Positions 1 through 16,224 of a stretch of DNA of 64,000 bases are shown here, piece by piece (position 1 is the stretch's first letter; the number at the start of each line of letters is the position of its first letter). The DNA is from Escherichia coli O127:H6 str. E2348/69. Its GTDB lineage: Bacteria > Pseudomonadota > Gammaproteobacteria > Enterobacterales > Enterobacteriaceae. Position numbers and translations under genes: made by a program. Below the pieces are notes generated by a model. It saw only the letters and a program-made list of their open reading frames with translations, ran no database searches and was not told the DNA's origin. The DNA is taken from NCBI RefSeq assembly GCF_000026545.1, contig NC_011601.1; one strand, 5' to 3'.

Positions 1-183
1 TGCGGTGATCCAGCCCTGGCCCTGACCTTTCAGGAAGCGCGGCACGCCTTCTTCAATAGAGGCGGTACACAACACTTTGGTATCGCCAAATTCGACCAGC
101 ACCGAGCCTTCTGCATGTTTTGTATAGTTACGAGTCAGGGTAACGGGACGCACCTGATTATTGCTACGGCCTGCTGGACGCAT
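1..183 (-). CDS. rph: RNase PH, N-terminal 61 codons (gene continues beyond window start)
   Basis: Reverse-strand translation from ATG at 183..181 reads [61 protein letters not shown], the RNase PH N-terminus; divergent from yicC as in E. coli. Confidence 0.85.
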
Positions 184-309
184 ATTGAAATCTCCGGCTT
201 GAAACAAATGTGGCTGCGCATTATACGGACTTCCGGCGGTTATTCCTATCCTGACAAGGCATCGATGGCTATAATCCTTCCACCTCTCCTTTTATAAACA
301 GGAACGTCT

Positions 310-1173
310 ATGATCCGCAGTATGACCGCCTACGCCCGGCGTGAAATCAAGGGTGAATGGGGGAGCGCAACCTGGGAAATGCGCTCGGTAAACCAGCGTT
401 ATCTGGAAACTTACTTTCGTCTGCCGGAGCAGTTCCGTAGCCTTGAACCTGTCGTTCGTGAGCGTATTCGTTCTCGCCTGACGCGCGGTAAAGTGGAATG
501 TACCCTGCGCTATGAGCCCGATGTCAGCGCGCAAGGTGAGCTGATCCTCAACGAAAAACTGGCTAAACAGCTGGTAACTGCCGCGAACTGGGTAAAAATG
601 CAGAGTGACGAAGGGGAAATCAACCCGGTTGATATTCTCCGCTGGCCAGGCGTGATGGCGGCCCAGGAACAGGATCTCGACGCGATTGCCGCTGAAATTC
701 TCGCGGCGCTGGATGGTACGCTGGACGACTTTATCATCGCGCGCGAAACCGAAGGTCAGGCGCTGAAAGCATTGATCGAGCAGCGTCTGGAAGGCGTGAC
801 CGCCGAAGTGGTCAAAGTCCGCGCCCACATGCCGGAAATCCTGCAATGGCAGCGTGAGCGTCTGGTGGCTAAGCTGGAAGACGCCCAGGTGCAACTGGAA
901 AACAACCGTCTGGAGCAGGAGTTGGTTCTGCTGGCACAACGAATTGACGTTGCCGAAGAGTTGGACCGCCTCGAAGCGCATGTTAAAGAGACCTACAACA
1001 TTCTGAAGAAAAAAGAAGCCGTTGGTCGTCGTCTGGACTTTATGATGCAGGAGTTCAACCGCGAGTCGAACACCCTGGCCTCGAAGTCTATCAATGCCGA
1101 AGTGACTAACTCCGCCATTGAGCTGAAAGTGTTGATCGAGCAGATGCGCGAGCAGATTCAGAATATTGAATGA
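310..1173 (+). CDS. yicC: YicC-family stress-induced protein, 287 aa
   Basis: 287-aa ORF with YicC-like sequence; expected position next to rph. Confidence 0.9.
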   Translation: MIRSMTAYARREIKGEWGSATWEMRSVNQRYLETYFRLPEQFRSLEPVVRERIRSRLTRGKVECTLRYEPDVSAQGELILNEKLAKQLVTAANWVKMQSDEGEINPVDILRWPGVMAAQEQDLDAIAAEILAALDGTLDDFIIARETEGQALKALIEQRLEGVTAEVVKVRAHMPEILQWQRERLVAKLEDAQVQLENNRLEQELVLLAQRIDVAEELDRLEAHVKETYNILKKKEAVGRRLDFMMQEFNRESNTLASKSINAEVTNSAIELKVLIEQMREQIQNIE

Positions 1174-1212
1174 TTTTGCATGCTGTCGCATGAAATTGCA
1201 AAAATCCATCAT

Positions 1213-1240
1213 AGCCCGCATTTTGCGGGCTTTTTTATTT
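1213..1240 (+). terminator. Rho-independent terminator downstream of yicC
   Basis: Hairpin agcccgca-tttt-gcgggct followed by T-rich run ttttttatttt. Confidence 0.7.
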
Positions 1241-1281
1241 TCATACTGTCGCATATGATTGCATAGCATCGCGCAAAACAT

Positions 1282-1300
1282 TTGTACCCAAGACTGTACC
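1282..1300 (+). repeat. attL core: 19-bp direct repeat TTGTACCCAAGACTGTACC (identical copy at 12406-12424)
   Basis: Exact 19/19 match at both ends of the integrase-bearing element. Confidence 0.75.
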
Positions 1301-1360
1301 TTTAATAATTTATCCAATTCATTTTGGGTACAAAATGATAGTCAATATTCAGGTGAAACT

Positions 1361-2620
1361 ATGGCAAAGCTGACAGATATCCAAATCAAGTCATGGATTA
1401 AGGCAGGAGAACGCTTCGAGGGGCGCTCTGACGGCAACGGGCTATACCTTCGCTATCGAGTGGGGGATAAAGTGCCTGTATGGCGTTTTCGATATCAGTT
1501 CGCTGGGAAATCACGGGTAATGCTTATTGGATCTTATAGCGAAATATCCCTTTCCAAAGCACGGGAAATAGCCAAGGAATTATCCGCACGTGTAGCCCTG
1601 GGCTTCGATGTCGCCGGGGAAAAGAAAGCGCGAAAAGCGGCTGCTATAGAAAAGATGGAGCGGGAGAAAAACGCGCTTCGCGTGTCAGAGCTAGCAACCG
1701 AGTATTTCGAACGGCAGATTTTGGGACGCTGGAAACATCCCGATCTTCTGCGCCGGAGAATCGATAAGGATATCAACCCACATATTGGCAACATGAAGAT
1801 AGAGGACGTAAAACCCCGTCATATTGATGCGATGCTACAGAGCGTTGTTGATCGTGGCGCTCCAACCGTAGCTAATGACGTTCTGCGCTGGACTAAACGC
1901 ATATTCGATTATGCTATCAAGCGTCATGCACTGGAATTAAACCCAGCTGGAGCATTTGATCTGTCAGACGCTGGCGGGCAGGAAAGTAGCCGTATGCGCT
2001 GGCTGACCCGTGAAGAACTTATACGTTTTTTCCAAGCTATGCGCACTGCAAAAGGATTCAGCCGCGAGAACGAGCTGACCATGAAGCTAATCCTCTGCCT
2101 GTGTTGTCGCAAAATGGAGCTGTGCGGTGCTCAGTGGGATGAATTCGACCTTGATGAAGCAGTGTGGCATCTACCAGCAGAACGCGTTAAAAACGGCGAC
2201 GCTATTGATATACCACTACCTCCACCTGCGGTTGGTTGGTTGAGAGAGCTTCGCACTATCGCGGGCAGTGGGAGTAAATGGGTTCTCCCCGCGCGGAAGA
2301 TGCAACACCGCATGATTCCCCACATTCAGGAAAGCACACTCCCAGTGGCGCTGGCAAAAGTACGCCGCGAAATGCCAGAAGTACCAAACTTCACAATTCA
2401 CGATTTCAGGCGTACCGCCCGCACCCATTTAGCGGCGTTGGGTGTCGATCCCGTAGTCGCAGAACGTTGCCTGAATCACCGCATTAAAGGCGTTGAGGGT
2501 ATCTACAACCGCCACCAGTACTTTGAAGAACGACGGGCAGCCCTGGAACTGTGGGCGGGGCTTCTGGTTTCGCTTGAACGAGGGGAAAACTACAATGTTA
2601 TTCCTTTATCTAAAATATAA
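1361..2620 (+). CDS. int: Tyrosine recombinase, P4-type integrase (419 aa)
   Basis: N-terminus MAKLTDIQIKSWIKAGERFEGRSDGNGLYLRYRVGDKVPVWRFRYQFAGK typical of P4-family arm-binding domain; C-terminal HDFRRT...HRIKGVEGIYNRHQY catalytic motif; start set at ATG 1361 with RBS aggtgaa. Confidence 0.9.
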   Translation: MAKLTDIQIKSWIKAGERFEGRSDGNGLYLRYRVGDKVPVWRFRYQFAGKSRVMLIGSYSEISLSKAREIAKELSARVALGFDVAGEKKARKAAAIEKMEREKNALRVSELATEYFERQILGRWKHPDLLRRRIDKDINPHIGNMKIEDVKPRHIDAMLQSVVDRGAPTVANDVLRWTKRIFDYAIKRHALELNPAGAFDLSDAGGQESSRMRWLTREELIRFFQAMRTAKGFSRENELTMKLILCLCCRKMELCGAQWDEFDLDEAVWHLPAERVKNGDAIDIPLPPPAVGWLRELRTIAGSGSKWVLPARKMQHRMIPHIQESTLPVALAKVRREMPEVPNFTIHDFRRTARTHLAALGVDPVVAERCLNHRIKGVEGIYNRHQYFEERRAALELWAGLLVSLERGENYNVIPLSKI

Positions 2621-2635
2621 AAGTTTTGTTTGAAG

Positions 2636-2740
2636 GTATTCACCCTATTCACCTTTTTAATTAACTTCATGATTTTAAATAATAAAAAAGGGTGAATACT
2701 TACAGTAAAACTAATCACCTTAGTATTCACCTGTTCACCT
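2636..2740. repeat. Cluster of five GGTGAAYA-type motifs (TATTCACC x3, GGTGAATA, TGTTCACC) downstream of int
   Basis: Read directly from sequence; a similar cluster lies at 12150-12265 at the other end of the element. Confidence 0.45.
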
Positions 2741-3123
2741 TCTAAAGCTGCTGTGGCTGCTCCCCTTGCCCGAAAACACGCCAGCCACCAGCGTTAAAAA
2801 AAACTACAAAAATCATCATCGTACAGATCTGTACGATGACGCCAGCACTCACCCTACAAAACAACCTAACTTATTGATTTCAAAAGTAGAGAAAATCTGC
2901 TTTATGCCACTAGCTCGCACCCGTCCCCAAAAAGAAAAAGCCCGCGCTGGAGACGCACGGGCTTTTGGGTACCGATAACCATGTTTGGAATCAACTCATT
3001 GAGTTCTGACCTCAATTTGCATGTTATCACAAGAAAAACACATTGTAATAATTGCAACAACGAATATCATCATTGCATATAATGAAACATAAATATCCGA
3101 TAGAACATACTGAGGTCTGACCG

Positions 3124-3675
3124 ATGCAAGATATTACAAACATCGCAGTGACTGGCGAAGATGGCGTGGTGACGTATGCCGACGGCAGTAAAGAGGAGTT
3201 CCAGTGCAGCGGAACCGTTGCGACCATCATTGCAAGTCTTGCAACGACACTCGAGAAAGAACGCAAAATGCGCATCGCCACCGGCGACCGCCTGCGCCGC
3301 ATGTACACCCGCGACAGTGATATGATTTCCCGCGGTTTGAATGGCACGTCTGCTACTTCCACGGCACCGACAGCAATGAATGCTGAGTTCATGCGTCTGG
3401 TACGTGCCGTAGCGCCGAAATACGATTCAGCACTGCCCGACGCCGACCCGCGCATCGTTGCGCTCGATGTGCTGCGCTACGCCCCTGCTGAGGCGTTCAG
3501 CGCCGTACACCCTACCCCAATGTCAGAAATCCAGCTGGATCAGGCTATCGATATACTCGAGCAGGTTGGCGACTACATGAAAGCAAACAATATCGCTCCG
3601 AAAATAATTTCTACAGGAGACGCAATCCGCAGCATCAATGCTGACAACGCCACCTTCTGGGGCAAAAAACACTAA
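3124..3675 (+). CDS. Hypothetical protein, 183 aa (first gene of cargo operon)
   Basis: ORF of 183 aa, same strand and closely spaced with three downstream ORFs; no motif recognised. Confidence 0.6.
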   Translation: MQDITNIAVTGEDGVVTYADGSKEEFQCSGTVATIIASLATTLEKERKMRIATGDRLRRMYTRDSDMISRGLNGTSATSTAPTAMNAEFMRLVRAVAPKYDSALPDADPRIVALDVLRYAPAEAFSAVHPTPMSEIQLDQAIDILEQVGDYMKANNIAPKIISTGDAIRSINADNATFWGKKH

Positions 3676-3688
3676 AGAGATATGAAGC

Positions 3689-3877
3689 ATGTCTATCTAT
3701 GACCCGAAATTAGCCGCAGGCAACCCACAGCGCGCCCACCGCCCAATGCTGACCCGTCAGGATCTTGAAACGGCAAAGGCACGCAATAACTTCGATCGCC
3801 AGAGTCGCAACCTGCAGCAACTCAACGAATCAAATGCACGGTTCTGGAGTGAACAGAATGAGAAAGCCAAACGTTAA
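3689..3877 (+). CDS. Hypothetical small protein, 62 aa
   Basis: Small ORF 14 bp after previous stop; basic/charged composition; no recognised domain. Confidence 0.4.
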   Translation: MSIYDPKLAAGNPQRAHRPMLTRQDLETAKARNNFDRQSRNLQQLNESNARFWSEQNEKAKR

Positions 3878-4034
3878 GCCGGTCCTGCTGTCCGCCGAGC
3901 AGATGCAGGCCATACGCAACATTCAGGAACGTGAACGCCAGCGCTCCAATCTCGGCGTCGCTCCCACCGTTCACCAGATTGCCCGCGGCCTCATGGCTAA
4001 GGCTCTGGCCTCACTGGCAAGCGAGGGCGCGTAA
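3858..4034 (+). CDS. Hypothetical small protein, 58 aa (start taken at ATG 3858)
   Basis: RBS ggag 9 nt upstream of ATG 3858; its stop overlaps the start of the next gene (TAATG). Confidence 0.4.
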   Translation: MRKPNVKPVLLSAEQMQAIRNIQERERQRSNLGVAPTVHQIARGLMAKALASLASEGA

Positions 4035-4765
4035 TGGGCGCCATTCACCAGATATATGAGCAGGAAATGTTCTATAACTGGATAGGCGATGGTAAACGAT
4101 GTGTAGCATTCCACGAAGCGGGCCATGCAGTAGCCGCATGGCTTATTCGCTTAGATATGCAGGTTATCGCCATTATGGATGAATCCGGCTACGTTGCTGG
4201 CGAACATGTACATGAAGCCCAGTGTTTGGGCGTTGTTAAACACGGCATAATCCACAGCCACGATCTCAGGCGTTTGCGGGAGAGTAAATCTGGTGTAGTT
4301 GGGCACGATGGCAAAGTTATCCCTTTCATACGCTACTACGCGGAAGGTATAAAGCGCGATGCAACAAAGGCCGCTTTTGTAGCCCTCGCTGGACCAGTAA
4401 GCGAAGCCATTTACGAAAATAACGAAATTTTCAATATAAAGTATTCACTCCCTCACCGCTATGACATGGCTAACGTAAATGACATGCTCGATTTAATATG
4501 TGCCACGGATAAGCGAATTAACAGGAAGTTAATGCTTTCTAAACTTGTTGAAAAGACCAAATTCCTCATGACTCAATACTGGCCGGAAGTAGGAAAAATA
4601 GCGCATTTGCTTGAGCGGGATAACATTGTTAATGGCCGCGATGTTAGCTCGCTAATCGGCCTCAACGTCATTGACCGGGCAACGCCATTTTTGGTATCTG
4701 ACTTGAGCAGTACATTTGCTCATCTCCCGTACTCGTCCCTGCCTCCGAATGAATTAGCAACTTGA
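4034..4765 (+). CDS. Standalone FtsH-like (M41-type) zinc metallopeptidase domain protein, 243 aa, no AAA+ module
   Basis: VAFHEAGHAVAAWL closely matches the FtsH zinc-binding HEAGH motif; later ALAGPVSEAIYEN resembles the FtsH third-ligand region; no Walker A/B present. Confidence 0.55.
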   Translation: MGAIHQIYEQEMFYNWIGDGKRCVAFHEAGHAVAAWLIRLDMQVIAIMDESGYVAGEHVHEAQCLGVVKHGIIHSHDLRRLRESKSGVVGHDGKVIPFIRYYAEGIKRDATKAAFVALAGPVSEAIYENNEIFNIKYSLPHRYDMANVNDMLDLICATDKRINRKLMLSKLVEKTKFLMTQYWPEVGKIAHLLERDNIVNGRDVSSLIGLNVIDRATPFLVSDLSSTFAHLPYSSLPPNELAT

Positions 4766-4812
4766 AGACAGTAAAGTAGCCATGCATTTAACACGCATGG
4801 CTATGTGAACAT

Positions 4813-6036
4813 TTAAGAATTAGAGCGCTTAGGCGATCGCGTAAATTGCACTAAAGCCCCTTTATGATCGTTAGCCTGCACATCACGATGCTCAACCAAC
4901 ATAGATTTTAATTTTGCCAGATGCACAACAGCAGCCTTCTTGCCAGTCAGGTACCCCTCGGGCAAACCAGCAATCATTTCCACATCAATAGCAGATAAAC
5001 CTGCGAATGCAGCAAGCCGTTCAACTGAAATGATTCCAGACGATGCCAGCAATTCAATAGTACGTTTCAACAAACGTGGTTTTTCAGGCTCACGATAATC
5101 ATCTCCCGGCTCTGATTTCGCTCCCCAACGTGCTGAACGACGCTTATAAAGATTTTGTTTCTCTTCTTCCGTAATAATATGCAGCACATGTAAACGCATG
5201 ATACTTGCCGCAACGGAAATACCATAGCGTTGTTTAATTAAAAGCAAGCTATCTAATGTTACCGGGGTCCTAATTTCTTCGGCAAATGTCTCAGCAGGAA
5301 GCAGCAGTGCTCCCGCAAATTTATGAGCCTGACTTTCCTTCAGCTTATAACGTTCGGCTTCGAGTTCGTTGCCAACATAGCGGTGAAGGATCAGATGACC
5401 AATTTCGTGAGCAAGGTCAAATCTGCTACGAAAAGCATTACCTTTATCTGAAGAGAGGAGAACAAAAGGAACACCTAAAGTCTCACTCCAGGCAGAAAGC
5501 CCTTCAATCTGCGCAACGCCTGTTTCTTCTCTAATAACGATAATACCATTACTCTCTGCGGCTAAAGCAAGATCCGGTATTTCCTTTGTACCAAGATTCC
5601 AAAGAGCACGGCACTCATTAGCAGCGTCTTCAATATCTGCATCACTAATTTCATCAATGTTTGTAAAGCTACGACGCGGTAGTTTTAGCTCCGGCAGATC
5701 TACAAACTCAGTCAGCTTAGTAACTAACTCATTAGCCCAATGGATTCGAGTTTCTAACATTGCTCGTGCAGCTACATGAGCTGATGCATTGCTTCTGAAC
5801 AGAGGCTTTGACATCCCCTTCAACAGAGGGCGCGTAAACCATTCAGGTGTAACATTTACGACAGTGGCCAGACGTTCTAAAGCCTCAGACTCTGGAGCCT
5901 GTTGACCGGAACGCCATTTGCTAATGGTTGCTGGTGATACACCCACCATAGTAGCTAATTGAGTTTGTGATAGCCGCCGGGCGGCTAGTACCTGTGCTAA
6001 CCTGCCCGGTTGAAATTCGGCGACGCCTCGGCTCAT
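4813..6036 (-). CDS. XRE-family HTH fused to ImmA/IrrE (M78-type) metallopeptidase, with ~150-aa C-terminal extension (407 aa)
   Basis: N-terminal LSQTQLATMVGVSPATISKWRSG helix-turn-helix; FDLAHEIGHLILHRY HExxH motif typical of ImmA/IrrE peptidases. Confidence 0.75.
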   Translation of the reverse strand: MSRGVAEFQPGRLAQVLAARRLSQTQLATMVGVSPATISKWRSGQQAPESEALERLATVVNVTPEWFTRPLLKGMSKPLFRSNASAHVAARAMLETRIHWANELVTKLTEFVDLPELKLPRRSFTNIDEISDADIEDAANECRALWNLGTKEIPDLALAAESNGIIVIREETGVAQIEGLSAWSETLGVPFVLLSSDKGNAFRSRFDLAHEIGHLILHRYVGNELEAERYKLKESQAHKFAGALLLPAETFAEEIRTPVTLDSLLLIKQRYGISVAASIMRLHVLHIITEEEKQNLYKRRSARWGAKSEPGDDYREPEKPRLLKRTIELLASSGIISVERLAAFAGLSAIDVEMIAGLPEGYLTGKKAAVVHLAKLKSMLVEHRDVQANDHKGALVQFTRSPKRSNS

Positions 6037-6680
6037 ACATTATCTTCCTCGGTTCCATCTTTTCTGATAATGCCCCTTTTGAGCCCAGGGAATGCATTAT
6101 CTTCTTGGGACGGAACTACATCATATCGGGTTAAAAAAAGTTCAAGTGGCTCATGAAAAACCCAGCGCTTCCCATCAGAACTTGGTACAACAAGCTCTAT
6201 AGACATCGGAGCTTCAGGCTGAATCTGCAACGAACCGGAAAAACGGCATACTACGAACAGTGTAGCTTTTGGCACATCAGAACCATCGGAGAATAAATCC
6301 GGTTGCACCATTTTTTCCACAAACACGTTCTCAGAAATGAGTTCTTGCTTACGTTTGCTACGGAATAATCTCTTCCACTGGTTATCATTGTAGCTTTCAC
6401 GAACAATCGTGAATATACCACTATGGCCTTCTACAATACGGTTACCACGCAGCTTTCCAGGATTACAACCGTTGGCCTCAAACACCTCATAAATAGTTTC
6501 ATTCAGGTTTAAATGACGATCATAACCAAGCGCGGTCGATCTGTGATCTAGCTTCTTCTTTTGAGCATAATCGTAAGAACGCTTTGATGCCGCGTAAATC
6601 GCGTCAGAAAGGGCCATGAAGAGTTGTTTTGAAACATTCTGAACGATGAGATCTGCCACTTTGGATTTTTTCACGACCAT
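6033..6680 (-). CDS. Hypothetical protein, 215 aa, translationally coupled upstream partner of the HTH-ImmA gene
   Basis: ORF of 215 aa; its stop overlaps the downstream start (ATGA at 6033-6036); no recognised motif. Confidence 0.6.
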   Translation of the reverse strand: MVVKKSKVADLIVQNVSKQLFMALSDAIYAASKRSYDYAQKKKLDHRSTALGYDRHLNLNETIYEVFEANGCNPGKLRGNRIVEGHSGIFTIVRESYNDNQWKRLFRSKRKQELISENVFVEKMVQPDLFSDGSDVPKATLFVVCRFSGSLQIQPEAPMSIELVVPSSDGKRWVFHEPLELFLTRYDVVPSQEDNAFPGLKRGIIRKDGTEEDNV

Positions 6681-6683
6681 TTC

Positions 6684-6702
6684 CTATCACTGTCACTGAT
6701 AG
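6684..6702. promoter_or_regulatory. Inverted repeat CTATCA-N7-TGATAG overlapping the RBS/start region of the 215-aa gene (candidate operator)
   Basis: Read directly from sequence immediately adjacent to the start codon at 6680. Confidence 0.25.
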
Positions 6703-7209
6703 CCGTGATTTTATATCAGTATTTTTTCGTGTGTCCATAACGCAATCAATTATTTTTTCCTTTGTCAGCAAGAATTATATAAAAAGCACTATCATGACAG
6801 GATTTGGGCCACTAACCTTTCACAGACTCTTGAAGTCCTAGAAAAAAGCAATGGCACAAGGTGTCCTTGCCGGGAGAAAAATCATCTGGCTACCAGCAAC
6901 CTTATAGATTCCAGATCAACGTAATATCAAAGTAAAACGTCCATTTCCGGTACCATATTTGGTCATTACGACGGGGGAAACTTATACCCACTGCTGCCCC
7001 ATCGTCAGCGCCGACAGGGACCTATGCCGCAAGGTATAAGGCAAAATTGGCATTTTCGCTATTCCCCCTGCCCGTATTTTTTGGCTTACTGGAATTTCTC
7101 TATCTAACACAATGAACTTGAGGCTATTCCGACAGGGAGAAAAGCGATCTACGCCTGACCGCCTGCCTCAGCAATCATCCAGGCAAGTACGTGTGTAAGG
7201 CTAACGCGA

Positions 7210-7890
7210 ATGAGTGATTTTTATTCCCCTCTACCAAGCTATGATCTTGTCCGGGCAGCGGAGATGCTGACTGATAAGGGGGCAAATTGTACCGGTAACG
7301 ATTTATTGGAACTATGGAACCAAGGCGTTATCGAGTTGTGTTTTTCTCTGCCGGACTACATTGCTTGTGAAGATGTTAATTTTCCCGGGCATGGTCACAG
7401 CATTTTGTTATCCGTGGATCCGATTAGCTTCAACCTTTTCTGGCTAAATGTTGATTACCCACCGAACTTAAATGCTAACTTTTCTGTGAAAGAATATGGC
7501 TCAGATAGTGAATTCCATGAGCAGTCCCTATGGATACCAACAGAACCGCACTACAACACTCACCATGATAACGGGGAAGGGCTTTGCGAAGCGTTAAGGA
7601 ATACTTATGGCCGGGAAAATTTACGAATACCAGGTGTCGAATTGCAAAAGGTTTGGCGCTTTTTGATCGGTCAGCCTTATGAAAAAAAGCCAACGCCTGA
7701 GCGTATCACCGCTAAGCAATGCCGCTTTATCGTCGCATTACTCAGATCGTATAACCTGACTGACGATGATTTTAAGGGGAGCATTAGGGACCTGAGAATT
7801 AAGATATCTAACCGGATCCCTTCAATCGGTGATCCTGAAATCGATGATAATACCCTTACTGACTGGCTGAAGAAGGGAGGGGTTCGGTAG
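7210..7890 (+). CDS. Hypothetical protein, 226 aa
   Basis: Isolated ORF upstream of alpA, preceded by ~530-bp AT-rich intergenic region; no recognised motif. Confidence 0.55.
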   Translation: MSDFYSPLPSYDLVRAAEMLTDKGANCTGNDLLELWNQGVIELCFSLPDYIACEDVNFPGHGHSILLSVDPISFNLFWLNVDYPPNLNANFSVKEYGSDSEFHEQSLWIPTEPHYNTHHDNGEGLCEALRNTYGRENLRIPGVELQKVWRFLIGQPYEKKPTPERITAKQCRFIVALLRSYNLTDDDFKGSIRDLRIKISNRIPSIGDPEIDDNTLTDWLKKGGVR

Positions 7891-7992
7891 CTGAGTTTTC
7901 ATAACTCCGATGAGTTTTCAATAACTCCCCCACCCGTAACCACCTACCCCGTAGCCTTGCGATTACCTTCTCACTCAATAGCAGGTAATCGC

Positions 7993-8205
7993 ATGAAATC
8001 GCAAACTTTCACCTTTCCTACCAATGGCAACGCACGAGCCAAACAAGTGGCGCACTATCTTGGAGTGCATATCAGCACCGTATGGCGCTATGCAAAACGT
8101 CCTGATTTTCCAAAACCCCACCAGTTAACCGACGGCGTGACCGTCTTTGACGCCGCAGCTATTCGCCAATGGAACAAGCAAAAAACCGGGGGTGAGAATG
8201 CTTAA
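7993..8205 (+). CDS. alpA: AlpA-family phage transcriptional regulator / excisionase-like DNA-binding protein (70 aa)
   Basis: KQVAHYLGVHISTVWRYAKRPDFPKPHQLTDGVTVFDAAAIRQW is the AlpA-type HTH pattern; start set at ATG 7993. Confidence 0.8.
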   Translation: MKSQTFTFPTNGNARAKQVAHYLGVHISTVWRYAKRPDFPKPHQLTDGVTVFDAAAIRQWNKQKTGGENA

Positions 8206-8259
8206 CGCGACCGTGAGCACACCCTGCACGACAGCCGTTCGATCTCCATTGTTGGCGGG

Positions 8260-8454
8260 TCAGGCTTTCGGCTCAATACCCAGCCGCTGGAGTTCTTTGC
8301 GCCCCAAGGTTTTCATCCAATTAGCTAAACTCATACCTGCATCTCGTGCGGCGGCCTCGAATTGCTCTTTCAATTCTGGGGCGATCCTCACTTGGAAAGC
8401 TGGTGCCTTTCCCCTGCCTTTGGGCTGTTTATCACGCTGTATTACTGTTGACAT
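8260..8454 (-). CDS. Small ribbon-helix-helix-like protein (64 aa), opposite strand to the replication operon
   Basis: FQVRIAPELKEQFEAAARDAGMSLANWMKTLGRK resembles RHH (Arc/CopG-type) strand-helix-helix; start chosen at internal Met. Confidence 0.4.
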   Translation of the reverse strand: MSTVIQRDKQPKGRGKAPAFQVRIAPELKEQFEAAARDAGMSLANWMKTLGRKELQRLGIEPKA

Positions 8455-8588
8455 GTATGTACCTATTAAACTAAGATTCAAATCAATAGGTACGCACCTT
8501 AACATGTTAAGGTCAGAAAAGACAACGCCCCGTAGTGCTCGCAACACATACGGGGCGTCTAACCAACAACGTTACGGAGACTAACGCT

Positions 8589-8789
8589 ATGGCTAAGCCG
8601 CAGTGTACCCAAACTCACCCCAAATATCAGTATCGTTTTATGGCGCTCGATCGCGCTGACCGCCAGGCAAAACCCTGCAAAATCATTGTTGAGGCCACCA
8701 GCGAGCATGAAGCACGTAAGGTGTTGGCACCTCACTACATCCTGTCACTGTCCGCCGTTTTGCCAGTTCAGGAGGTGAGCCATGTTTAA
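8589..8789 (+). CDS. Hypothetical small protein (66 aa), satellite replication-module operon
   Basis: RBS ggaga upstream of ATG 8589; overlaps next ORF. Confidence 0.5.
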   Translation: MAKPQCTQTHPKYQYRFMALDRADRQAKPCKIIVEATSEHEARKVLAPHYILSLSAVLPVQEVSHV

Positions 8790-8976
8790 TGTCATTGTCA
8801 CGGTCACCTATCACTTTTCGGGAACGATCCGTCGTTTTGCTATTCCGGAACGTTTCAATAATCGTGAGCTCGCAGAGAAAGCGGCGCAGCAGTTAACCCA
8901 TACCAGCTATCTGGATGATGGAGTGAGCAGAATTGTGACCCACGCGGCGGAAGTAGTGGAGGTGCGCCATGTATGA
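8782..8976 (+). CDS. Hypothetical small protein (64 aa)
   Basis: Strong RBS caggaggtg; overlapping start/stop with neighbours. Confidence 0.55.
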   Translation: MFNVIVTVTYHFSGTIRRFAIPERFNNRELAEKAAQQLTHTSYLDDGVSRIVTHAAEVVEVRHV

Positions 8977-9157
8977 CGCCTACCTGAACCCAAAGGACGC
9001 ACTCCGTCCGATCGCCGTTGCACTCGAGGCTGCGCAGTTTATCGCGCTTGACCCGGAGAATACCGATTTAGCCCATGAGCTGATCGCCTGGGCACTTGAA
9101 ACAGCCGCGCGTGCCTCAGCTGCGCAACGTAACACCCCGGAGGTGGACAATGCTTAA
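8969..9157 (+). CDS. Hypothetical small protein (62 aa)
   Basis: RBS ggaggtg upstream; translationally coupled. Confidence 0.5.
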   Translation: MYDAYLNPKDALRPIAVALEAAQFIALDPENTDLAHELIAWALETAARASAAQRNTPEVDNA

Positions 9158-9458
9158 TCTCAATACATGGAATCTTTTCACGCTGCCGCTGAACGGTGGC
9201 GCAGCTGAGACAGCGCCGGACGATCTGCGTCTGCTGGCCGCTGTGGGGGACGAGGCTCGCAACAACTACCTGCGCGGTGTAAGCGCCATCGGCAATCTGA
9301 TCTTCTGGGCATGTGATAACCCCAACTACACCGACCATCAAGCTGACCTGCCAGCGCTGGGCGCATTCCTGAAACATACCGCTGATATGGCGCGCGCTGC
9401 CGAATTCATGGCAGGACATCTGGACTCACTGGCTGACGGCAAAGAGGGAGGCAAATAA
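9150..9458 (+). CDS. Hypothetical protein (102 aa)
   Basis: RBS ggaggtg before ATG 9150; stop overlaps next start. Confidence 0.55.
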   Translation: MLNLNTWNLFTLPLNGGAAETAPDDLRLLAAVGDEARNNYLRGVSAIGNLIFWACDNPNYTDHQADLPALGAFLKHTADMARAAEFMAGHLDSLADGKEGGK

Positions 9459-9679
9459 TGCCACGCAAACATCGCTCATCAAGCAACCTGATCAAATTAA
9501 TGGAACGCCAGAAAGGTATAGGGCGCGACGATATCCAGATCGCAGATAATCGCCCTACATTCATGCCGTACGAGCCGAACGGAACCTACGCTACAAACCG
9601 CCATACCCGCCGTATGCTACGCAAGCTCCACGGCATCCAGGCAAAAAGAATGTGTGATCTGAAAGGAGGTCAGAAATGA
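9458..9679 (+). CDS. Hypothetical small basic protein (73 aa)
   Basis: RBS gagggagg; stop overlaps primase start (ATGA). Confidence 0.5.
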   Translation: MPRKHRSSSNLIKLMERQKGIGRDDIQIADNRPTFMPYEPNGTYATNRHTRRMLRKLHGIQAKRMCDLKGGQK

Positions 9680-12090
9680 GTGGATTCGATCACCTGATGG
9701 AGCAGGGGCAGAAACGCACCCCTGCTCGTTTTACTGCAAATAGCTTTTCTGACCTGTGCAACGCTATTCTATCGCATCGTGTGCAAATTTCCATCACACA
9801 GGAAATGACGGATGAAGAACGGCGCAAAGAAAAGCAGAAACTGTACTGGTTCTCGGCAACTACCCAGCAGGACGGGCAGCGACGTAAACCCGAAAACATG
9901 GCACCGTGTGCTTTCGGTATGCTGGACATTGACGGCAGCACTCCCGGTGCAATCACAGCACTTGTACAGGTGTTCCGGCGATACTCAATGCTGGTGTACC
10001 AGACGGCCAGCTATACGACGGATGAACCTCGTCTGCGTATTGTGTGCGAGCTTTCCCGAGCGGTTGAATCTGACTACCGCCGAGCGACAGGCGAATCCAT
10101 AGAAACTTTGTTGATGCAGGAGGCTGGATTCTCATTCGCCAGCCTGGCGGATAAGAAAGCACGCTGGGAGAACGGCAGCGATTATGTTGTCTTTGACCGC
10201 AATGTATACGGCGCTCAAAGCTATTGCTACTGTCCACACACTGGAGCGAAAGCCCAGAATTACGCGGGCGCGGTAATCGACGTAGGGGCGTTACCGGAAC
10301 CCGCCCAGCCACCAGCGAAGGCGGCCAAAAGCAAGGCAAAGAAACAGCGCCAGCGTGACGCCGCGGCGGTAATAGATGCTGATTTTGACGATCTGAGCGC
10401 CGGACCGGATAACTTCCTTATCGCCGACCTGCGCAGCGCACTCTGGTTTCCCTCCATGCTGCAAAAGGCATGGGACAATGGGGCGTGGATTGAGCAGGGC
10501 TACCGCCTTGCATCTCTCAAAGGCACCGATTTTGAGGACGACGCGCGGCAACTGTGGGTCGAGTGGTCATTGACCGCAGCGGATGGCTGGCCTGATGAAG
10601 AACTTGATGAAGTCGCGGCACAACGCTGGAATGGTCTCGCCCCTGACAAAACCAGCTATAAAGCTATTTTTACTGATGCTCAGGCGCAGGGGTGGAATAA
10701 TCCGGGCAAATGGCGAGCAAAGGCCGCGTACATTGAGAAAATGGCCCCCAGCACACGCGGTGAACTGCTGGCGCAATATTACGGCAACGTATGCCTGAAA
10801 GCTGATGGCAACATGGTTTATCACTATACCGGGCAGGTGTGGGAGCACATCGCCGATGCCGAGTTGCGCCGCCAGCTTTCGCAGATTTTCAAAGATAACG
10901 GGGTCCCCTTTACACCGTACGAGGTTAAAAGCGCGATTGAGGCTATGGGAATGCTTCTGCCTTTAATGGGAGAAACTCCTCGTAACCTGATTGGCTTTGC
11001 CAACGGCGTTTATGATCTCGAGGCGCAGCGATTCCGCCCCCACTGCCCAGACGATTGGCTGACCAGCCATAACGGCGTTGAATACACGCAGCCGGTTAAA
11101 GGCGAAACCCTGAAAAACAATGCCCCAAACTTCTGGCGCTGGCTGCATCATTCCGCAGGGGGCGACTTCGACAAAATGGAGAGAATCAAAGCCGCTCTGT
11201 ATATGGTGCTGGCAAACCGCTACGACTGGCAACTGTTCATCGAGGTTACCGGTGCTGGTGGCAGTGGTAAAAGCGTGTTCACGGGTATTGCACGTATGCT
11301 GACGGGCGAACTACACGCCACCAGCGGCACAATGGAGGACATGGACACCGCGCGCGAACGCGCATCTTTTGTCGGCAAAAGCCTGATCACCCTACCCGAC
11401 CAAGCAACATATACGGGTTCCGGGCCGGGTATCAAGGCTATAACGGGCGGCGACGTGGTAAGGATCGACCCAAAGCACGAAAAGCCATTCCATACGGTTA
11501 TTCGCGCCGTTGTCATCGCAACAAACAACGAACCTATGCGTTTCACCGAACGACAAGGCGGGATATCGCGGCGCCGGGTTATTTTCCCGTTTAACCATGA
11601 AGTGCCGGAGGCGGAACGTGATCCCCATCTGCTCGATAAAATTAAAGCCGAACTGCCGGTAATCGTCCGTGGTCTGCTGATTGACTTCGAACAGCCAGGC
11701 AAAGCCAAATCGCTACTTATCGCGCAGCGTGATTCAGCGGAAGCGCTGCAGGTGAAGAACGATAACGACCCGATGTATGGCTTTTGCTCTTACCTGCTAG
11801 GTTTGCCGAATCCCGAGGGCATGTACATGGGCGATGGGCGCATGGCGCGAGAGCCACGCATCTACCTCTATCATGCTTATCTGGCCTATCTGGAAGCCTA
11901 CGGTTATCAGAGAACCCCCACCCTACCGAAGTTCAGCGGAGATTTACGGGACACGCTCAAAGCCTTTGGTATTACTCTGGACAGTAAAAAGAGTAAAAAG
12001 GGCAAAAGATATAACGTCAATTTGTCTGACAGGGCACAAGAATGGCTGGGAGAAGACGAACTCTCAGCTGTGCCCGACACATTGCAGTAA
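9676..12090 (+). CDS. P4 alpha-like bifunctional DNA primase/helicase (804 aa)
   Basis: Walker A GAGGSGKS in the C-terminal half; size and architecture typical of P4-alpha-type replication proteins; RBS aaggagg. Confidence 0.85.
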   Translation: MSGFDHLMEQGQKRTPARFTANSFSDLCNAILSHRVQISITQEMTDEERRKEKQKLYWFSATTQQDGQRRKPENMAPCAFGMLDIDGSTPGAITALVQVFRRYSMLVYQTASYTTDEPRLRIVCELSRAVESDYRRATGESIETLLMQEAGFSFASLADKKARWENGSDYVVFDRNVYGAQSYCYCPHTGAKAQNYAGAVIDVGALPEPAQPPAKAAKSKAKKQRQRDAAAVIDADFDDLSAGPDNFLIADLRSALWFPSMLQKAWDNGAWIEQGYRLASLKGTDFEDDARQLWVEWSLTAADGWPDEELDEVAAQRWNGLAPDKTSYKAIFTDAQAQGWNNPGKWRAKAAYIEKMAPSTRGELLAQYYGNVCLKADGNMVYHYTGQVWEHIADAELRRQLSQIFKDNGVPFTPYEVKSAIEAMGMLLPLMGETPRNLIGFANGVYDLEAQRFRPHCPDDWLTSHNGVEYTQPVKGETLKNNAPNFWRWLHHSAGGDFDKMERIKAALYMVLANRYDWQLFIEVTGAGGSGKSVFTGIARMLTGELHATSGTMEDMDTARERASFVGKSLITLPDQATYTGSGPGIKAITGGDVVRIDPKHEKPFHTVIRAVVIATNNEPMRFTERQGGISRRRVIFPFNHEVPEAERDPHLLDKIKAELPVIVRGLLIDFEQPGKAKSLLIAQRDSAEALQVKNDNDPMYGFCSYLLGLPNPEGMYMGDGRMAREPRIYLYHAYLAYLEAYGYQRTPTLPKFSGDLRDTLKAFGITLDSKKSKKGKRYNVNLSDRAQEWLGEDELSAVPDTLQ

Positions 12091-12109
12091 CTTGTAAAAA
12101 ATCACCAAG

Positions 12110-12132
12110 AACCCCGTAAATCGGGGTTTTTG
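12110..12132 (+). terminator. Rho-independent terminator after the primase gene
   Basis: Hairpin aaccccg-taaa-tcggggtt followed by ttttt. Confidence 0.65.
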
Positions 12133-12149
12133 TCTATTTATTAGTCTGA

Positions 12150-12265
12150 AAGGGTGAACAGGTGCGCATACCTTAACAAAGCTGTTCACTCTAATAATTT
12201 TCTTTAATATCAGTACACTACCCGCAATAAGTGAACAGATGGACGGGGTGAACACTTCACACCTA
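12150..12265. repeat. Cluster of GGTGAACA-type motifs (four to five copies, both orientations) near the attR end
   Basis: Read from sequence; mirrors the motif cluster at 2636-2740. Confidence 0.4.
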
Positions 12266-12405
12266 TAGCGCGAAATATTTTAATATTTGCAGTTGAATTG
12301 CAATCCTTGAAAACAGAAACGCGTAGCAAAACGTAGAGTGCTGAAAAAATTTTGTTGGGGAGCAGTTCAAACTGCATGAGCAATTTTCAAGCACTCCTCT
12401 TTGTC

Positions 12406-12424
12406 TTGTACCCAAGACTGTACC
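12406..12424 (+). repeat. attR core: second copy of 19-bp direct repeat TTGTACCCAAGACTGTACC
   Basis: Exact match to 1282-1300. Confidence 0.75.
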
Positions 12425-12655
12425 CAATAGAAAAAATAGAAAATAAAAACTCAGCAATAGCAGCGATTGGTTACACTACTCAACATTCAGATTCAACTCG
12501 TAACGCCAATTCTTACTTTTCAGCCTTCACAAATGCCGCCCACTCAAACAGAGCGGCATTTTTCTTCCCCGCAACTTCAATTCTGTTTTGCGTGCCTGCT
12601 CCAGATTTTGCGATGTTTTTTTGCCCAGCGCAGTGAGAACGTGAGATACTCACAA

Positions 12656-12671
12656 CTGTATATAAACACAG
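12656..12671. promoter_or_regulatory. LexA (SOS) box CTGTATATAAACACAG in the dinD promoter
   Basis: Matches CTGT-N8-ACAG consensus; ~45 bp upstream of dinD start. Confidence 0.75.
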
Positions 12672-12716
12672 TTGTAGACTTACTTTCCTTGCAATCGATA
12701 TCACATGGAGTGGGCA

Positions 12717-13541
12717 ATGAACGAACATCATCAACCTTTTGAAGAGATAAAGCTGATTAATGCAAACGGAGCAGAACAATGGTCAGCAAGACAACTTGGG
12801 AAACTACTGGGTTATTCAGAGTATCGTCACTTTATACCTGTATTAACGCGCGCCAAAGAAGCTTGTCTGAATAGTGGTCACACAATTGATGACCATTTCG
12901 AGGAGATCCTCGATATGATCAAAATTGGCTCAAATGCCAAAAGAGCATTAAAAGACATCGTACTCTCCCGCTATGCCTGTTACCTGGTAGTACAAAACGG
13001 CGACCCTGCGAAACCGGTTATTGCGGCAGGGCAAACTTATTTTGCTATCCAGACCCGACGGCAGGAGCTGGCTGACGATGAAGCTTTCAGGCAACTTCGT
13101 GAAGACGAAAAGCGTCTTTTTCTGAGAAATGAGTTGAAAGAACATAACAAACAATTAGTTGAGGCAGCGCAGCAAGCTGGGGTAGCGACAGCTATCGATT
13201 TCGCCATATTTCAGAATCATGGTTACCGGGGGCTGTATGGTGGATTAGATCAGAAAGCCATCCATCAGCGGAAGGGGCTGAAAAAGAGTCAGAAGATCCT
13301 GGATCATATGGGTTCAACAGAACTGGCGGCTAATCTCTTTCGAGCTACCCAAACAGAAGAAAAACTCAAGCGGGATGGCGTGAATTCAAAACAGCAAGCT
13401 AACACCACACACTTTGACGTGGGTCGCAAGGTGAGGCAAACCATTCAGGAACTTGGCGGAACCATGCCTGAGGAGTTGCCGACCCCGCAGGTCAACATCA
13501 AGCAGTTGGAAAACAGTGTAAAAATTACAGAGAAGAAATAG
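12717..13541 (+). CDS. dinD: DNA damage-inducible protein D (274 aa)
   Basis: MNEHHQPFEEIKLINANGAEQW N-terminus; LexA box upstream; start set at ATG 12717. Confidence 0.9.
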   Translation: MNEHHQPFEEIKLINANGAEQWSARQLGKLLGYSEYRHFIPVLTRAKEACLNSGHTIDDHFEEILDMIKIGSNAKRALKDIVLSRYACYLVVQNGDPAKPVIAAGQTYFAIQTRRQELADDEAFRQLREDEKRLFLRNELKEHNKQLVEAAQQAGVATAIDFAIFQNHGYRGLYGGLDQKAIHQRKGLKKSQKILDHMGSTELAANLFRATQTEEKLKRDGVNSKQQANTTHFDVGRKVRQTIQELGGTMPEELPTPQVNIKQLENSVKITEKK

Positions 13542-13832
13542 CAGAAACTAAAAACTCTTTTTGTTGATTGAGATACCCGATGCGTAAGCCAAAGTCCAGG
13601 TGCGGTGAACACAATGGCTAAACATTGCACCTTTCTTTTCCACCCCTCAATTTTAACCTATTTTTTCTTATGCATTCTCTCAGACAAGAAGTCAGAAGAA
13701 TGCATCTACGCTACAGAAAATAGCGATTTCACATAACTACAAGTTATCAATTTCCTCTCACCTTAAAAAATCTCAATCGTGACAATACGCACAAATCGCT
13801 ACCCTGCCAGACAGATTTTTAGGGAGAGAACC

Positions 13833-16224
<2,392 letters not shown>

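Follow-up and report, generated by a model that had tools for sequence, protein, structure and literature searches.

Phased repeat arrays in the attL arm of a yicC-inserted island of Escherichia coli E2348/69 as candidate docking sites for the island's AlpA protein

The two 18-bp repeats found just behind yicC in E. coli O127:H6 strain E2348/69, together with the hairpin between them, belong to a satellite-like island inserted at the end of that gene. Comparison with related islands suggests that the repeats are parts of two phased arrays of docking sites for the island's AlpA protein, which would bend attL for excision, and that the hairpin is a separate terminator; we assign this reading a probability of about 0.55. 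All positions are those of the window, i.e., the whole 64,000-nt stretch of DNA that was analyzed.

RESULTS

Repeats and hairpin downstream of yicC

The window contains rph, yicC (310 to 1173), an island of ~11.3 kb, dinD, yicG, and ligB, in that order. An earlier note on this DNA had drawn attention to two copies of the motif CTGTCGCAT-N3-ATTGCA behind yicC. Both are present on the plus strand, copy 1 (CTGTCGCATGAAATTGCA) at 1183 to 1200 and copy 2 (CTGTCGCATATGATTGCA) at 1246 to 1263, one on each side of a hairpin with a T-run. No other match to the 18-mer with two or fewer mismatches was found within the 64-kb window; in shuffled sequence 0.28 matches were expected, and two matches were reached in 1 of 100 shuffles. 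The similarity extends over 26 nt at 81% identity (1175 to 1200 versus 1238 to 1263), with a start-to-start spacing of 63 bp. Each 18-mer consists of two units within a longer array of T(T/C)GCA pentamers that start at 1176, 1186, and 1196 on the left and at 1239, 1249, and 1259 on the right, with a further unit at 1271, so placed that all lie on one helical face. The features to which the text refers are as follows.

310 to 1173, plus strand: yicC coding sequence, ending in TGA; at least the base that distinguishes this stop codon from TAA is island derived
1153 to 1173, plus strand: the 21-bp att repeat as present in attL, CAGATTCAGAATATTGAATGA, formed by the 3′ end of yicC
1176 to 1200, plus strand: left array TTGCA, TCGCA, TTGCA (units at 1176, 1186, and 1196), holding copy 1 (1183 to 1200)
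1213 to 1237, plus strand: intrinsic terminator of the island, with stem AGCCCGCA/TGCGGGCT, loop TTT, and a T-run
1239 to 1275, plus strand: right array TTTCA, TCGCA, TTGCA plus a conserved (A/C)GCGCA (units at 1239, 1249, 1259, and 1271), containing copy 2 (1246 to 1263)
1283 to 1300, plus strand: direct pair of arm-type sites for the integrase, 12 bp apart (TGTACCCAAG at 1283, TGTACC at 1295)
1324 to 1332, minus strand: third arm-type site, inverted, TTGGGTACA
1361 to 2620, plus strand: tyrosine integrase with an N-terminal arm-DNA-binding domain (PF13356)
7979 to 8003, plus strand: third phased array, TAGCA-N5-TCGCA-N5-TCGCA, including TCGCATGAAATCGCA across the alpA start codon
7993 to 8205, plus strand: AlpA-family winged-helix protein of 70 amino acids (aa) (PF05930; WP_000842055.1), the proposed binder of the arrays
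12407 to 12427, plus strand: two direct arm-type sites in the attR arm, TGTACCCAA twice, at 12407 and 12419, 12 bp apart
12488 to 12496, plus strand: eroded attR copy, CAGATTCAA, lacking 12 nt of the intact copy in strain FWSEC0003; host sequence resumes at 12497 (CTCGTAACGCC)
12531 to 12566, plus strand: terminator native to yicC, now at the right end of the island

The hairpin itself (1213 to 1231) has an 8-bp GC-rich stem and folds at −14.1 kcal/mol (z = −5.6). A GC-rich stem-loop followed by a T-run, at a position that is conserved among related islands, is what is seen in Rho-independent terminators. Over the hairpin, an Rfam scan of positions 1 to 14000 returned just a sub-threshold Trp-leader match, and RNAalifold run on a MAFFT alignment of the hairpin was uninformative, the alignment being poor. 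The left copy pairs weakly as RNA (z = −2.6), and the right copy lies 3′ of the terminator. We rejected a reading of the motif as a LexA box, since it starts with CTGT and lacks the ACAG half. The genuine dinD LexA box, CTGTATATAAACACAG, is an ordinary feature of the host DNA to the right of the island (12656 to 12671).

The repeats travel with the island

At two empty sites, in island-free strains (L001 and L057), yicC ends in TAA and is followed by CTCGTAACGCC and then by the native terminator. That sequence resumes in the window at 12497 to 12566, and both copies and the hairpin are therefore island DNA. The hairpin had been called the yicC terminator; it does lie between the copies, but the terminator native to yicC is the one at the far end of the island. 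The stop codon of yicC is TGA in the island-bearing strains E2348/69 and 2013C-3342 and TAA in both empty-site strains that were read. The 188 bp after the stop codon, comprising both copies and the hairpin, occur in 17 of 5,426 complete E. coli genomes and always adjoin this integrase. All of the 5,424 genomes that match yicC, except for those 17, diverge at the stop codon, so that the sequence is missing from 5,407 of them, and a search for further E. coli relatives of the arm or of alpA returned the same 17 genomes only. The earlier note had offered a host regulatory element as one possibility, and it had named as a refuting outcome the identical motif in island-free strains without any association to integration, which would make the motif a backbone feature only. 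The opposite was found, as island-free strains differ there, and we rejected a regulatory element of yicC or dinD because the sequence is absent from island-free genomes at this locus.

As is typical of an integrative element at the yicC 3′ end, the island has an adjoining tyrosine integrase, restores the yicC reading frame, and is flanked by direct repeats, here an imperfect 21-bp repeat that matches the end of yicC. We defined this att repeat by comparing the two empty sites with the intact attR of the O45:H2 strain FWSEC0003 (L059). The crossover lies somewhere inside the 21 bp (1153 to 1173); the exact point cannot be fixed because the attR copies are eroded to differing extents across strains, with internal deletions of 2 nt (DEC5B), 6 nt (2013C-3342), 9 nt (2011C-4251), and 12 nt (E2348/69). 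The erosion may indicate an island that is locked into the E2348/69 chromosome or, alternatively, the region of integrase cleavage. Losses from attR were also seen in Zobellella (2 nt; L028) and at tandem junctions in Erwinia (2 nt in L007 and 4 nt in L005).

The repeats had been placed just before attL and upstream of an att core; with the junction repeat formed by the last 21 bp of yicC, they instead lie inside attL. What was taken for the att core is probably the 19-bp repeat TTGTACCCAAGACTGTACC (1282 to 1300 and 12408 to 12426), which is located ~110 bp inward of the left junction and ~70 bp inward of the right one and represents a pair of internal arm-type sites. The corrected boundary assigns the terminator and both repeats to the island, with which they move, and leaves the native yicC terminator displaced by 11 kb. 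Elsewhere in E2348/69, ~1.5 kb past the left end of the window, a gene of the reverse-transcriptase family lies between slmA and pyrE (L002, 16505 to 17464); it is missing from that interval in strain 2013C-3342 (L058).

Island gene content and the region upstream of alpA

Besides int and alpA, the island encodes an Icd-like protein and a D5/P4-alpha-type primase (9676 to 12090). Together with the int-alpA RNA motif, this gene set appears to fit a Gram-negative phage-inducible chromosomal island (PICI) or P4-like satellite; no packaging or capsid redirection genes were recognized in the island. The RNA motif (Rfam RF02996; 7117 to 7184, plus strand) scored 39.4 bits against a gathering threshold of 35.8 and lies directly upstream of a gene for an uncharacterized 226-aa protein (7210 to 7890), which itself directly precedes alpA and in which no DNA-binding domain could be recognized. 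Among solved structures, AlpA gave a weak match to the AlpA-family entry 8c3t and no other. The cargo includes, on the minus strand (4813 to 6680), a Rosmer anti-phage pair, RmrT (215 aa; E = 8e−16) and RmrA (helix-turn-helix [HTH] plus M78 peptidase, 407 aa; E = 3.5e−125). A terminator-like hairpin (AACCCCG..CGGGGTT plus a T-run) follows the primase gene within 12104 to 12260, and behind it are four copies of GTGAACA in both orientations (12152 to 12254), possibly a replication origin or the site of a regulator.

The pattern TCGCAT-N3-ATYGCA has three matches in 64 kb, against 0.04 expected, and all are within the island. The third phased array, at the alpA start codon, is ambiguous in meaning because it is overlapped by a conserved inverted repeat and by coding sequence. 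The inverted repeat, GCGATTAC (7959 to 7966) and GTAATCGC (7985 to 7992), brackets the alpA ribosome-binding site and is kept in E2348/69, in Erwinia endophytica (L005), and in Salmonella (L065); it could form an RNA stem that sequesters the ribosome-binding site, or it could be an operator. Since copies of an element's own motif near alpA were found in E2348/69 and its nearest relative, L005, and in none of the other elements, a general role of the motif in alpA autoregulation is unsupported. Farther upstream of alpA are two tandem palindromic elements, GAGTTTTCATAACTCC and GAGTTTTCAATAACTCC (7893 to 7930, plus strand), with a nearly identical palindrome pair upstream of alpA in an Aeromonas caviae island (L041); these resemble operators at which a dimeric regulator would act on the alpA promoter.

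A common arm layout in 45 related islands

We scanned one genome per species for relatives of the integrase and obtained 54 loci, of which 45 were usable for alignment of the arm (the int-upstream loci L003 to L046 and L053; integrases 48 to 85% identical). Their hosts, which range from Enterobacterales to Betaproteobacteria, are Enterobacterales, Aeromonas, Tolumonas, Zobellella, Vogesella, Dechloromonas, Aromatoleum, and methanotrophs. Almost all of the related loci are directly after yicC. The islands share one order of parts: the stop codon, a conserved TTCA-like unit, two variable units, and a hairpin with a T-run; then a conserved TATCA-like unit, two variable units, and a conserved AGCGCA unit; and finally two direct GTAC-type repeats 12 bp apart, an inverted GTAC copy, and the int start. 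The 18-mers of E2348/69 each correspond to the pair of variable units on one side of the hairpin. In the left array the first unit is kept in nearly all related islands, and the other two are element specific. The hairpin and T-run were found automatically at the same place in 35 of the 45 islands, with differing stem sequences.

Spacing within the arm is strict. The distance from the stop codon to the first arm site is 107 to 109 bp in 35 islands and 117 to 119 bp, one helical turn more, in another 8, and that from the T-run to the arm site is exactly 44 bp in 42 of 45; the stretch from the arm site to the int ATG, by contrast, varies (49 to 118 bp). Units recur with a period of 10 to 11 bp on both sides of the hairpin, and the spacing of the best left-right 18-mer match is quantized at 53, 62 to 64, 72 to 74, and 82 to 84 bp, i.e., at multiples of ~10.5 bp. 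As in directionality-factor arrays, the repeats are tandem and direct, stand one helical turn apart, and occupy one att arm, between the att repeat at 1153 to 1173 and the arm sites at 1283 to 1300. Tandem pairs of such islands at yicC were often seen (L005, at ~20.85 kb; L008, at ~13.7 kb; L033, at ~21 kb; L014; and L053), with further tandem junctions upstream of int in L003, L007, and L030; a second arm of array, hairpin, and GTAC sites then directly follows the attR-type arm of the first island.

Left and right arrays match within each element

The variable units fall into classes, which we defined by hand, as single-linkage clustering had chained all arrays into one cluster: TCGCA/TTGCA in E2348/69; ACTCC in Escherichia albertii, Pantoea stewartii, and Tenebrionibacter; TCTCA in Buttiauxella, Klebsiella, and Dickeya; TAGCA/ACGCA in Mixta and Chimaeribacter; TATCA/AATCA in Intestinirhabdus and Enterobacter; and ATTGCA/AATCA in Xenorhabdus. 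Across 22 class representatives, the left array of an element resembled its own right array more than it resembled those of other elements (permutation P = 5e−5). The excess also held within the Enterobacterales alone, and neighboring control segments showed no left-right effect (P > 0.4). Such matching is the pattern that would be expected for sites read by a sequence-specific protein encoded by the element.

Arm-type sites follow the integrase, and arrays do not

Both arms have GTAC repeats, in the window as well as in the seven other loci for which attR was captured, whereas the array motif is absent from the attR arm and was found in attL only. The class of GTAC repeat (GTACCCAAG, GTACATA, GTACTTA, or GTACACC) follows integrase residues 31 to 40 (types LRYR..D.P, LCFP..Y.PF, and LSYRENY..P), whatever the class of array. 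Xenorhabdus islands with identical arrays, for instance, have either GTACCCAAA with LRFREADRIPSW or GTACACCTA with LSYRENYKIPVW. Among the 45 int-upstream loci, arm-site class and residues 31 to 40 swap together and independently of the remaining integrase, a pairing that can be read as a specificity code. When similarity matrices for 30 elements were fitted by multiple regression, residues 31 to 40 were the best predictor of GTAC similarity (beta = 0.38, P = 0.0005), and these residues contributed little to array similarity (beta = 0.09). With no covariation with residues 31 to 40 and a presence on one arm only, the arrays are, as judged from these comparisons, probably not integrase arm sites. 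The suggestion that the repeats form part of the integrase recognition context is thus right only broadly, in that they sit in the int-proximal att arm; it is the GTAC repeats that covary with the arm-binding residues of the integrase, and the repeats covary with AlpA clade.

Arrays follow the AlpA clade

AlpA proteins are master regulators of Gram-negative phage satellites. In simple Mantel tests, similarity of the hairpin, used as a control, also correlated with AlpA similarity, and neither simple nor partial tests separated AlpA from general relatedness, the hairpin control behaving alike; we therefore used multiple regression and AlpA homologues at other integration sites. In the regression (30 elements), array similarity was best predicted by AlpA similarity (beta = 0.46, P = 0.0005), with a coefficient of −0.09 for the C-terminal part of the integrase, and hairpin similarity was evenly spread over all predictors (0.23 to 0.25; AlpA, 0.23). 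The E2348/69 island and those of E. albertii or Tenebrionibacter illustrate this result: the C-terminal parts of their integrases are 86 to 87% identical, their AlpA proteins are 41 to 43% identical, and their arrays are unrelated. One pair counts against the link, as L025 and L030 have AlpA cores that are 93% identical and arrays that are ~60% identical.

A protein search for AlpA homologues (70 to 80% identical over the full BLASTP alignment and 77 to 81% over the conserved AlpA core) led to islands at three other integration sites, with integrases 61 to 65% identical to that of the E2348/69 island. All three have the same TCGCA/TTGCA/GTCGCA units, in two arrays upstream of int. One Salmonella island (L065) abuts the 5′ end of bolA and has TTGCA, TCGCA, and TTGCA at 1132, 1143, and 1153 and TTGCG, TTGCA, and TCGCA at 1206, 1216, and 1226, without a hairpin in between. 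A second Salmonella island (L067) has CCGCA, TCGCA, and TCGCA and then TCGCA, TCGCA, and AGCGCG, again without a hairpin. The third (L068), after a co-oriented asd-like gene, has cGTCGCAt, a hairpin with a T-run, and then CTGTCGCActtgaTAGCA. T[CT]GCA counts in the arrays were 2 to 5 in elements of this AlpA clade versus a mean of 0.57 in 42 others (P = 7e−5), and GTCGCA counts differed likewise (P = 4e−7). By these comparisons, the motif class follows the AlpA clade and not the integration site or the body of the integrase. At L065, the island also seems to replace the first codons of bolA (1100 to 1320); the gene is annotated from a TTG there, with LREQIEEKL as the N terminus of the protein.

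Islands behind a co-oriented host gene (yicC, or the asd-like gene in the case of L068) have the hairpin; L065, with its divergent bolA, and L067, where the junction is not defined, lack it. This distribution by host gene orientation fits the role of a terminator and insulator that is separate from the arrays. The 226-aa protein co-occurs with the motif class in every AlpA-clade locus, and a homologue is also found in the Aeromonas island L041, whose arrays differ.

DISCUSSION

A model for the arrays in attL

We hypothesize that the two 18-mers are element-specific units of two helically phased T(T/C)GCA arrays that fill the ~108 bp from the crossover region to the integrase arm-type sites in the int-proximal arm. 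AlpA monomers would dock head to tail, one per helical turn, on one face of the DNA and on both sides of the hairpin. Binding would bend attL such that integrase held at the arm sites reaches the core, and excision would be promoted or directed, possibly with modulation of int expression. It counts against this model that the left array starts only 3 bp after the 21-bp att repeat, so that it could overlap the core footprint of the integrase. The hairpin is a separate part, a terminator of the island that takes over from the displaced one of yicC and would keep read-through from yicC out of int. All of the links to AlpA are correlations across related elements, from which we infer that AlpA is the binder, and we likewise infer that its binding serves excision; no report of the DNA binding sites of AlpA proteins was found in the literature cited here. 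As such, the repeats are an ordinary feature, a functional-looking part of an island att arm of the kind that is expected there.

It is possible, if unlikely, that another island protein binds the arrays, either the integrase at a second class of sites or the 226-aa protein. The left array adjoins the att core, which favors binding by integrase, and the integrase N-domain outside residues 31 to 40 gave a secondary signal for the arrays (beta = 0.31, P = 0.018). That signal is explained by physical linkage, however, and islands of a single arm-site/N-domain class (L013, L025, L030, and L016) carry different arrays; the absence of arrays from the attR arm also argues against integrase sites. The 226-aa protein is present at every AlpA-clade locus, but its homologue in Aeromonas L041 accompanies different arrays and the protein lacks a recognizable DNA-binding domain. 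We consider it rather improbable that the arrays are transcriptional operators (for an activator, roadblock, or antiterminator) acting on int or on yicC read-through and not recombination sites. They do stand on either side of a terminator that immediately precedes int, a near-copy of the motif spans the alpA start codon, and AlpA was first described as a controller of int in a P4-like prophage (as cited in PMC6092414). Against this, the same arrays occur without a hairpin at L065 and L067, so that the terminator is dispensable for them; a search of 1000 to 1500 yielded no sigma-70-like promoter; Pint of EcCICFT073 is unaffected by AlpA (PMC6092414); and the strict distances to the crossover region and to the arm sites point to intasome geometry.

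Host nucleoid proteins of the IHF or Fis type, or the intrinsic bendability of DNA with phased CA/TG steps, might instead fold the arm. The units do share CA with a period of 10 to 11 bp, and the TTCA after the stop codon, the TATCA after the T-run, and the AGCGCA are conserved in all classes. A host factor common to the Enterobacterales would not, however, yield variable units that differ between elements and match within each, and there is no match to the IHF consensus in either att arm, which leaves this explanation very unlikely. Least credible of all is that the repeats are a functionless relic of a duplication at terminator insertion, a chance match, or a host yicC or dinD regulatory element. 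They flank the hairpin as a target site duplication would, but the architecture is kept in 45 diverged islands with fixed spacing and concerted left-right evolution, and the confinement of the sequence to island-bearing genomes opposes a host element. Finally, Pseudomonas AlpA is a known antiterminator, and a terminator placed between AlpA arrays might let a protein-DNA filament gate yicC read-through into int. The supply of integrase would in that case depend both on host yicC transcription and on AlpA induced by a helper phage; the hairpin-free loci weaken this idea, and we regard it as a long shot.

The 45 islands also form a clean natural experiment, in which three specificities of one integrase family are independently swappable: the core target (yicC, bolA, or the asd-like gene), the arm sites with residues 31 to 40, and the arrays with the AlpA clade. 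The outcome is a set of testable specificity codes for arm-binding domains and AlpA-type proteins.

Comparison with known systems

Xis, Cox, Apl, and Vis sites are classically recognized by phased repeats in the interval from core to arm sites. Directionality factors bind head to tail to direct repeats one helical turn apart, bend att DNA, and often double as transcription regulators (PMC7498355), and excision of Gram-negative PICIs requires alpA, which lies directly behind int there (PMC6092414, PMC11773190). The X1-X1.5-X2 sites of lambda Xis and the sites of Gifsy-1 and Pukovnik are likewise tandem direct repeats in the interval between core and arm sites of one arm (PMC7498355). A small winged-helix protein binds them head to tail and bends the DNA (PMC7498355), and the putative binder in E2348/69 is of the AlpA family. 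Unlike the lambda Xis sites, the island has two arrays of three to four units each, four to five turns apart, and these are on the int-proximal arm with a terminator between them. Phage 186 Apl has five direct repeats at att, with a spacing of 10 to 11 bp, and seven more at a promoter, and P4 Vis, an AlpA homologue, is needed for excision (PMC7498355, PMC6092414). E2348/69 resembles the dual-purpose factors Apl, P2 Cox, and Vis in having a third phased array, at the alpA start. In contrast to the Apl case, E2348/69 and its nearest relative were the only elements in which this extra array was seen, and its role at the alpA start is putative.

The 3′ end of yicC is an established target, used by MGIVflInd1, MGIVmi1, and the SGI1-like IEEcoMOD1, which share with the E2348/69 island the insertion site and the kind of tyrosine integrase and which carry a small directionality factor (PMC8409611). 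Those elements are mobilized by conjugation and have RdfM-type factors, whereas the set of int, alpA, and primase genes in E2348/69 is like that of a P4/PICI satellite. Another arrangement to which the island can be likened, by description and not by sequence, is the IntS/TorI module of KplE1 (CPS-53), in which int reportedly abuts attL, as Panis et al. are said to have described in 2007 and 2010, and in which the sites of integrase and directionality factor are consequently said to lie across the regulatory region of int. The insertion site of KplE1 is a tRNA gene, unlike that of the E2348/69 island at yicC. A phased array in an att arm is thus known in kind, and the main value of the present analysis lies in the corrected island boundary and in the modular covariation of arm sites with integrase residues 31 to 40 and of arrays with AlpA.
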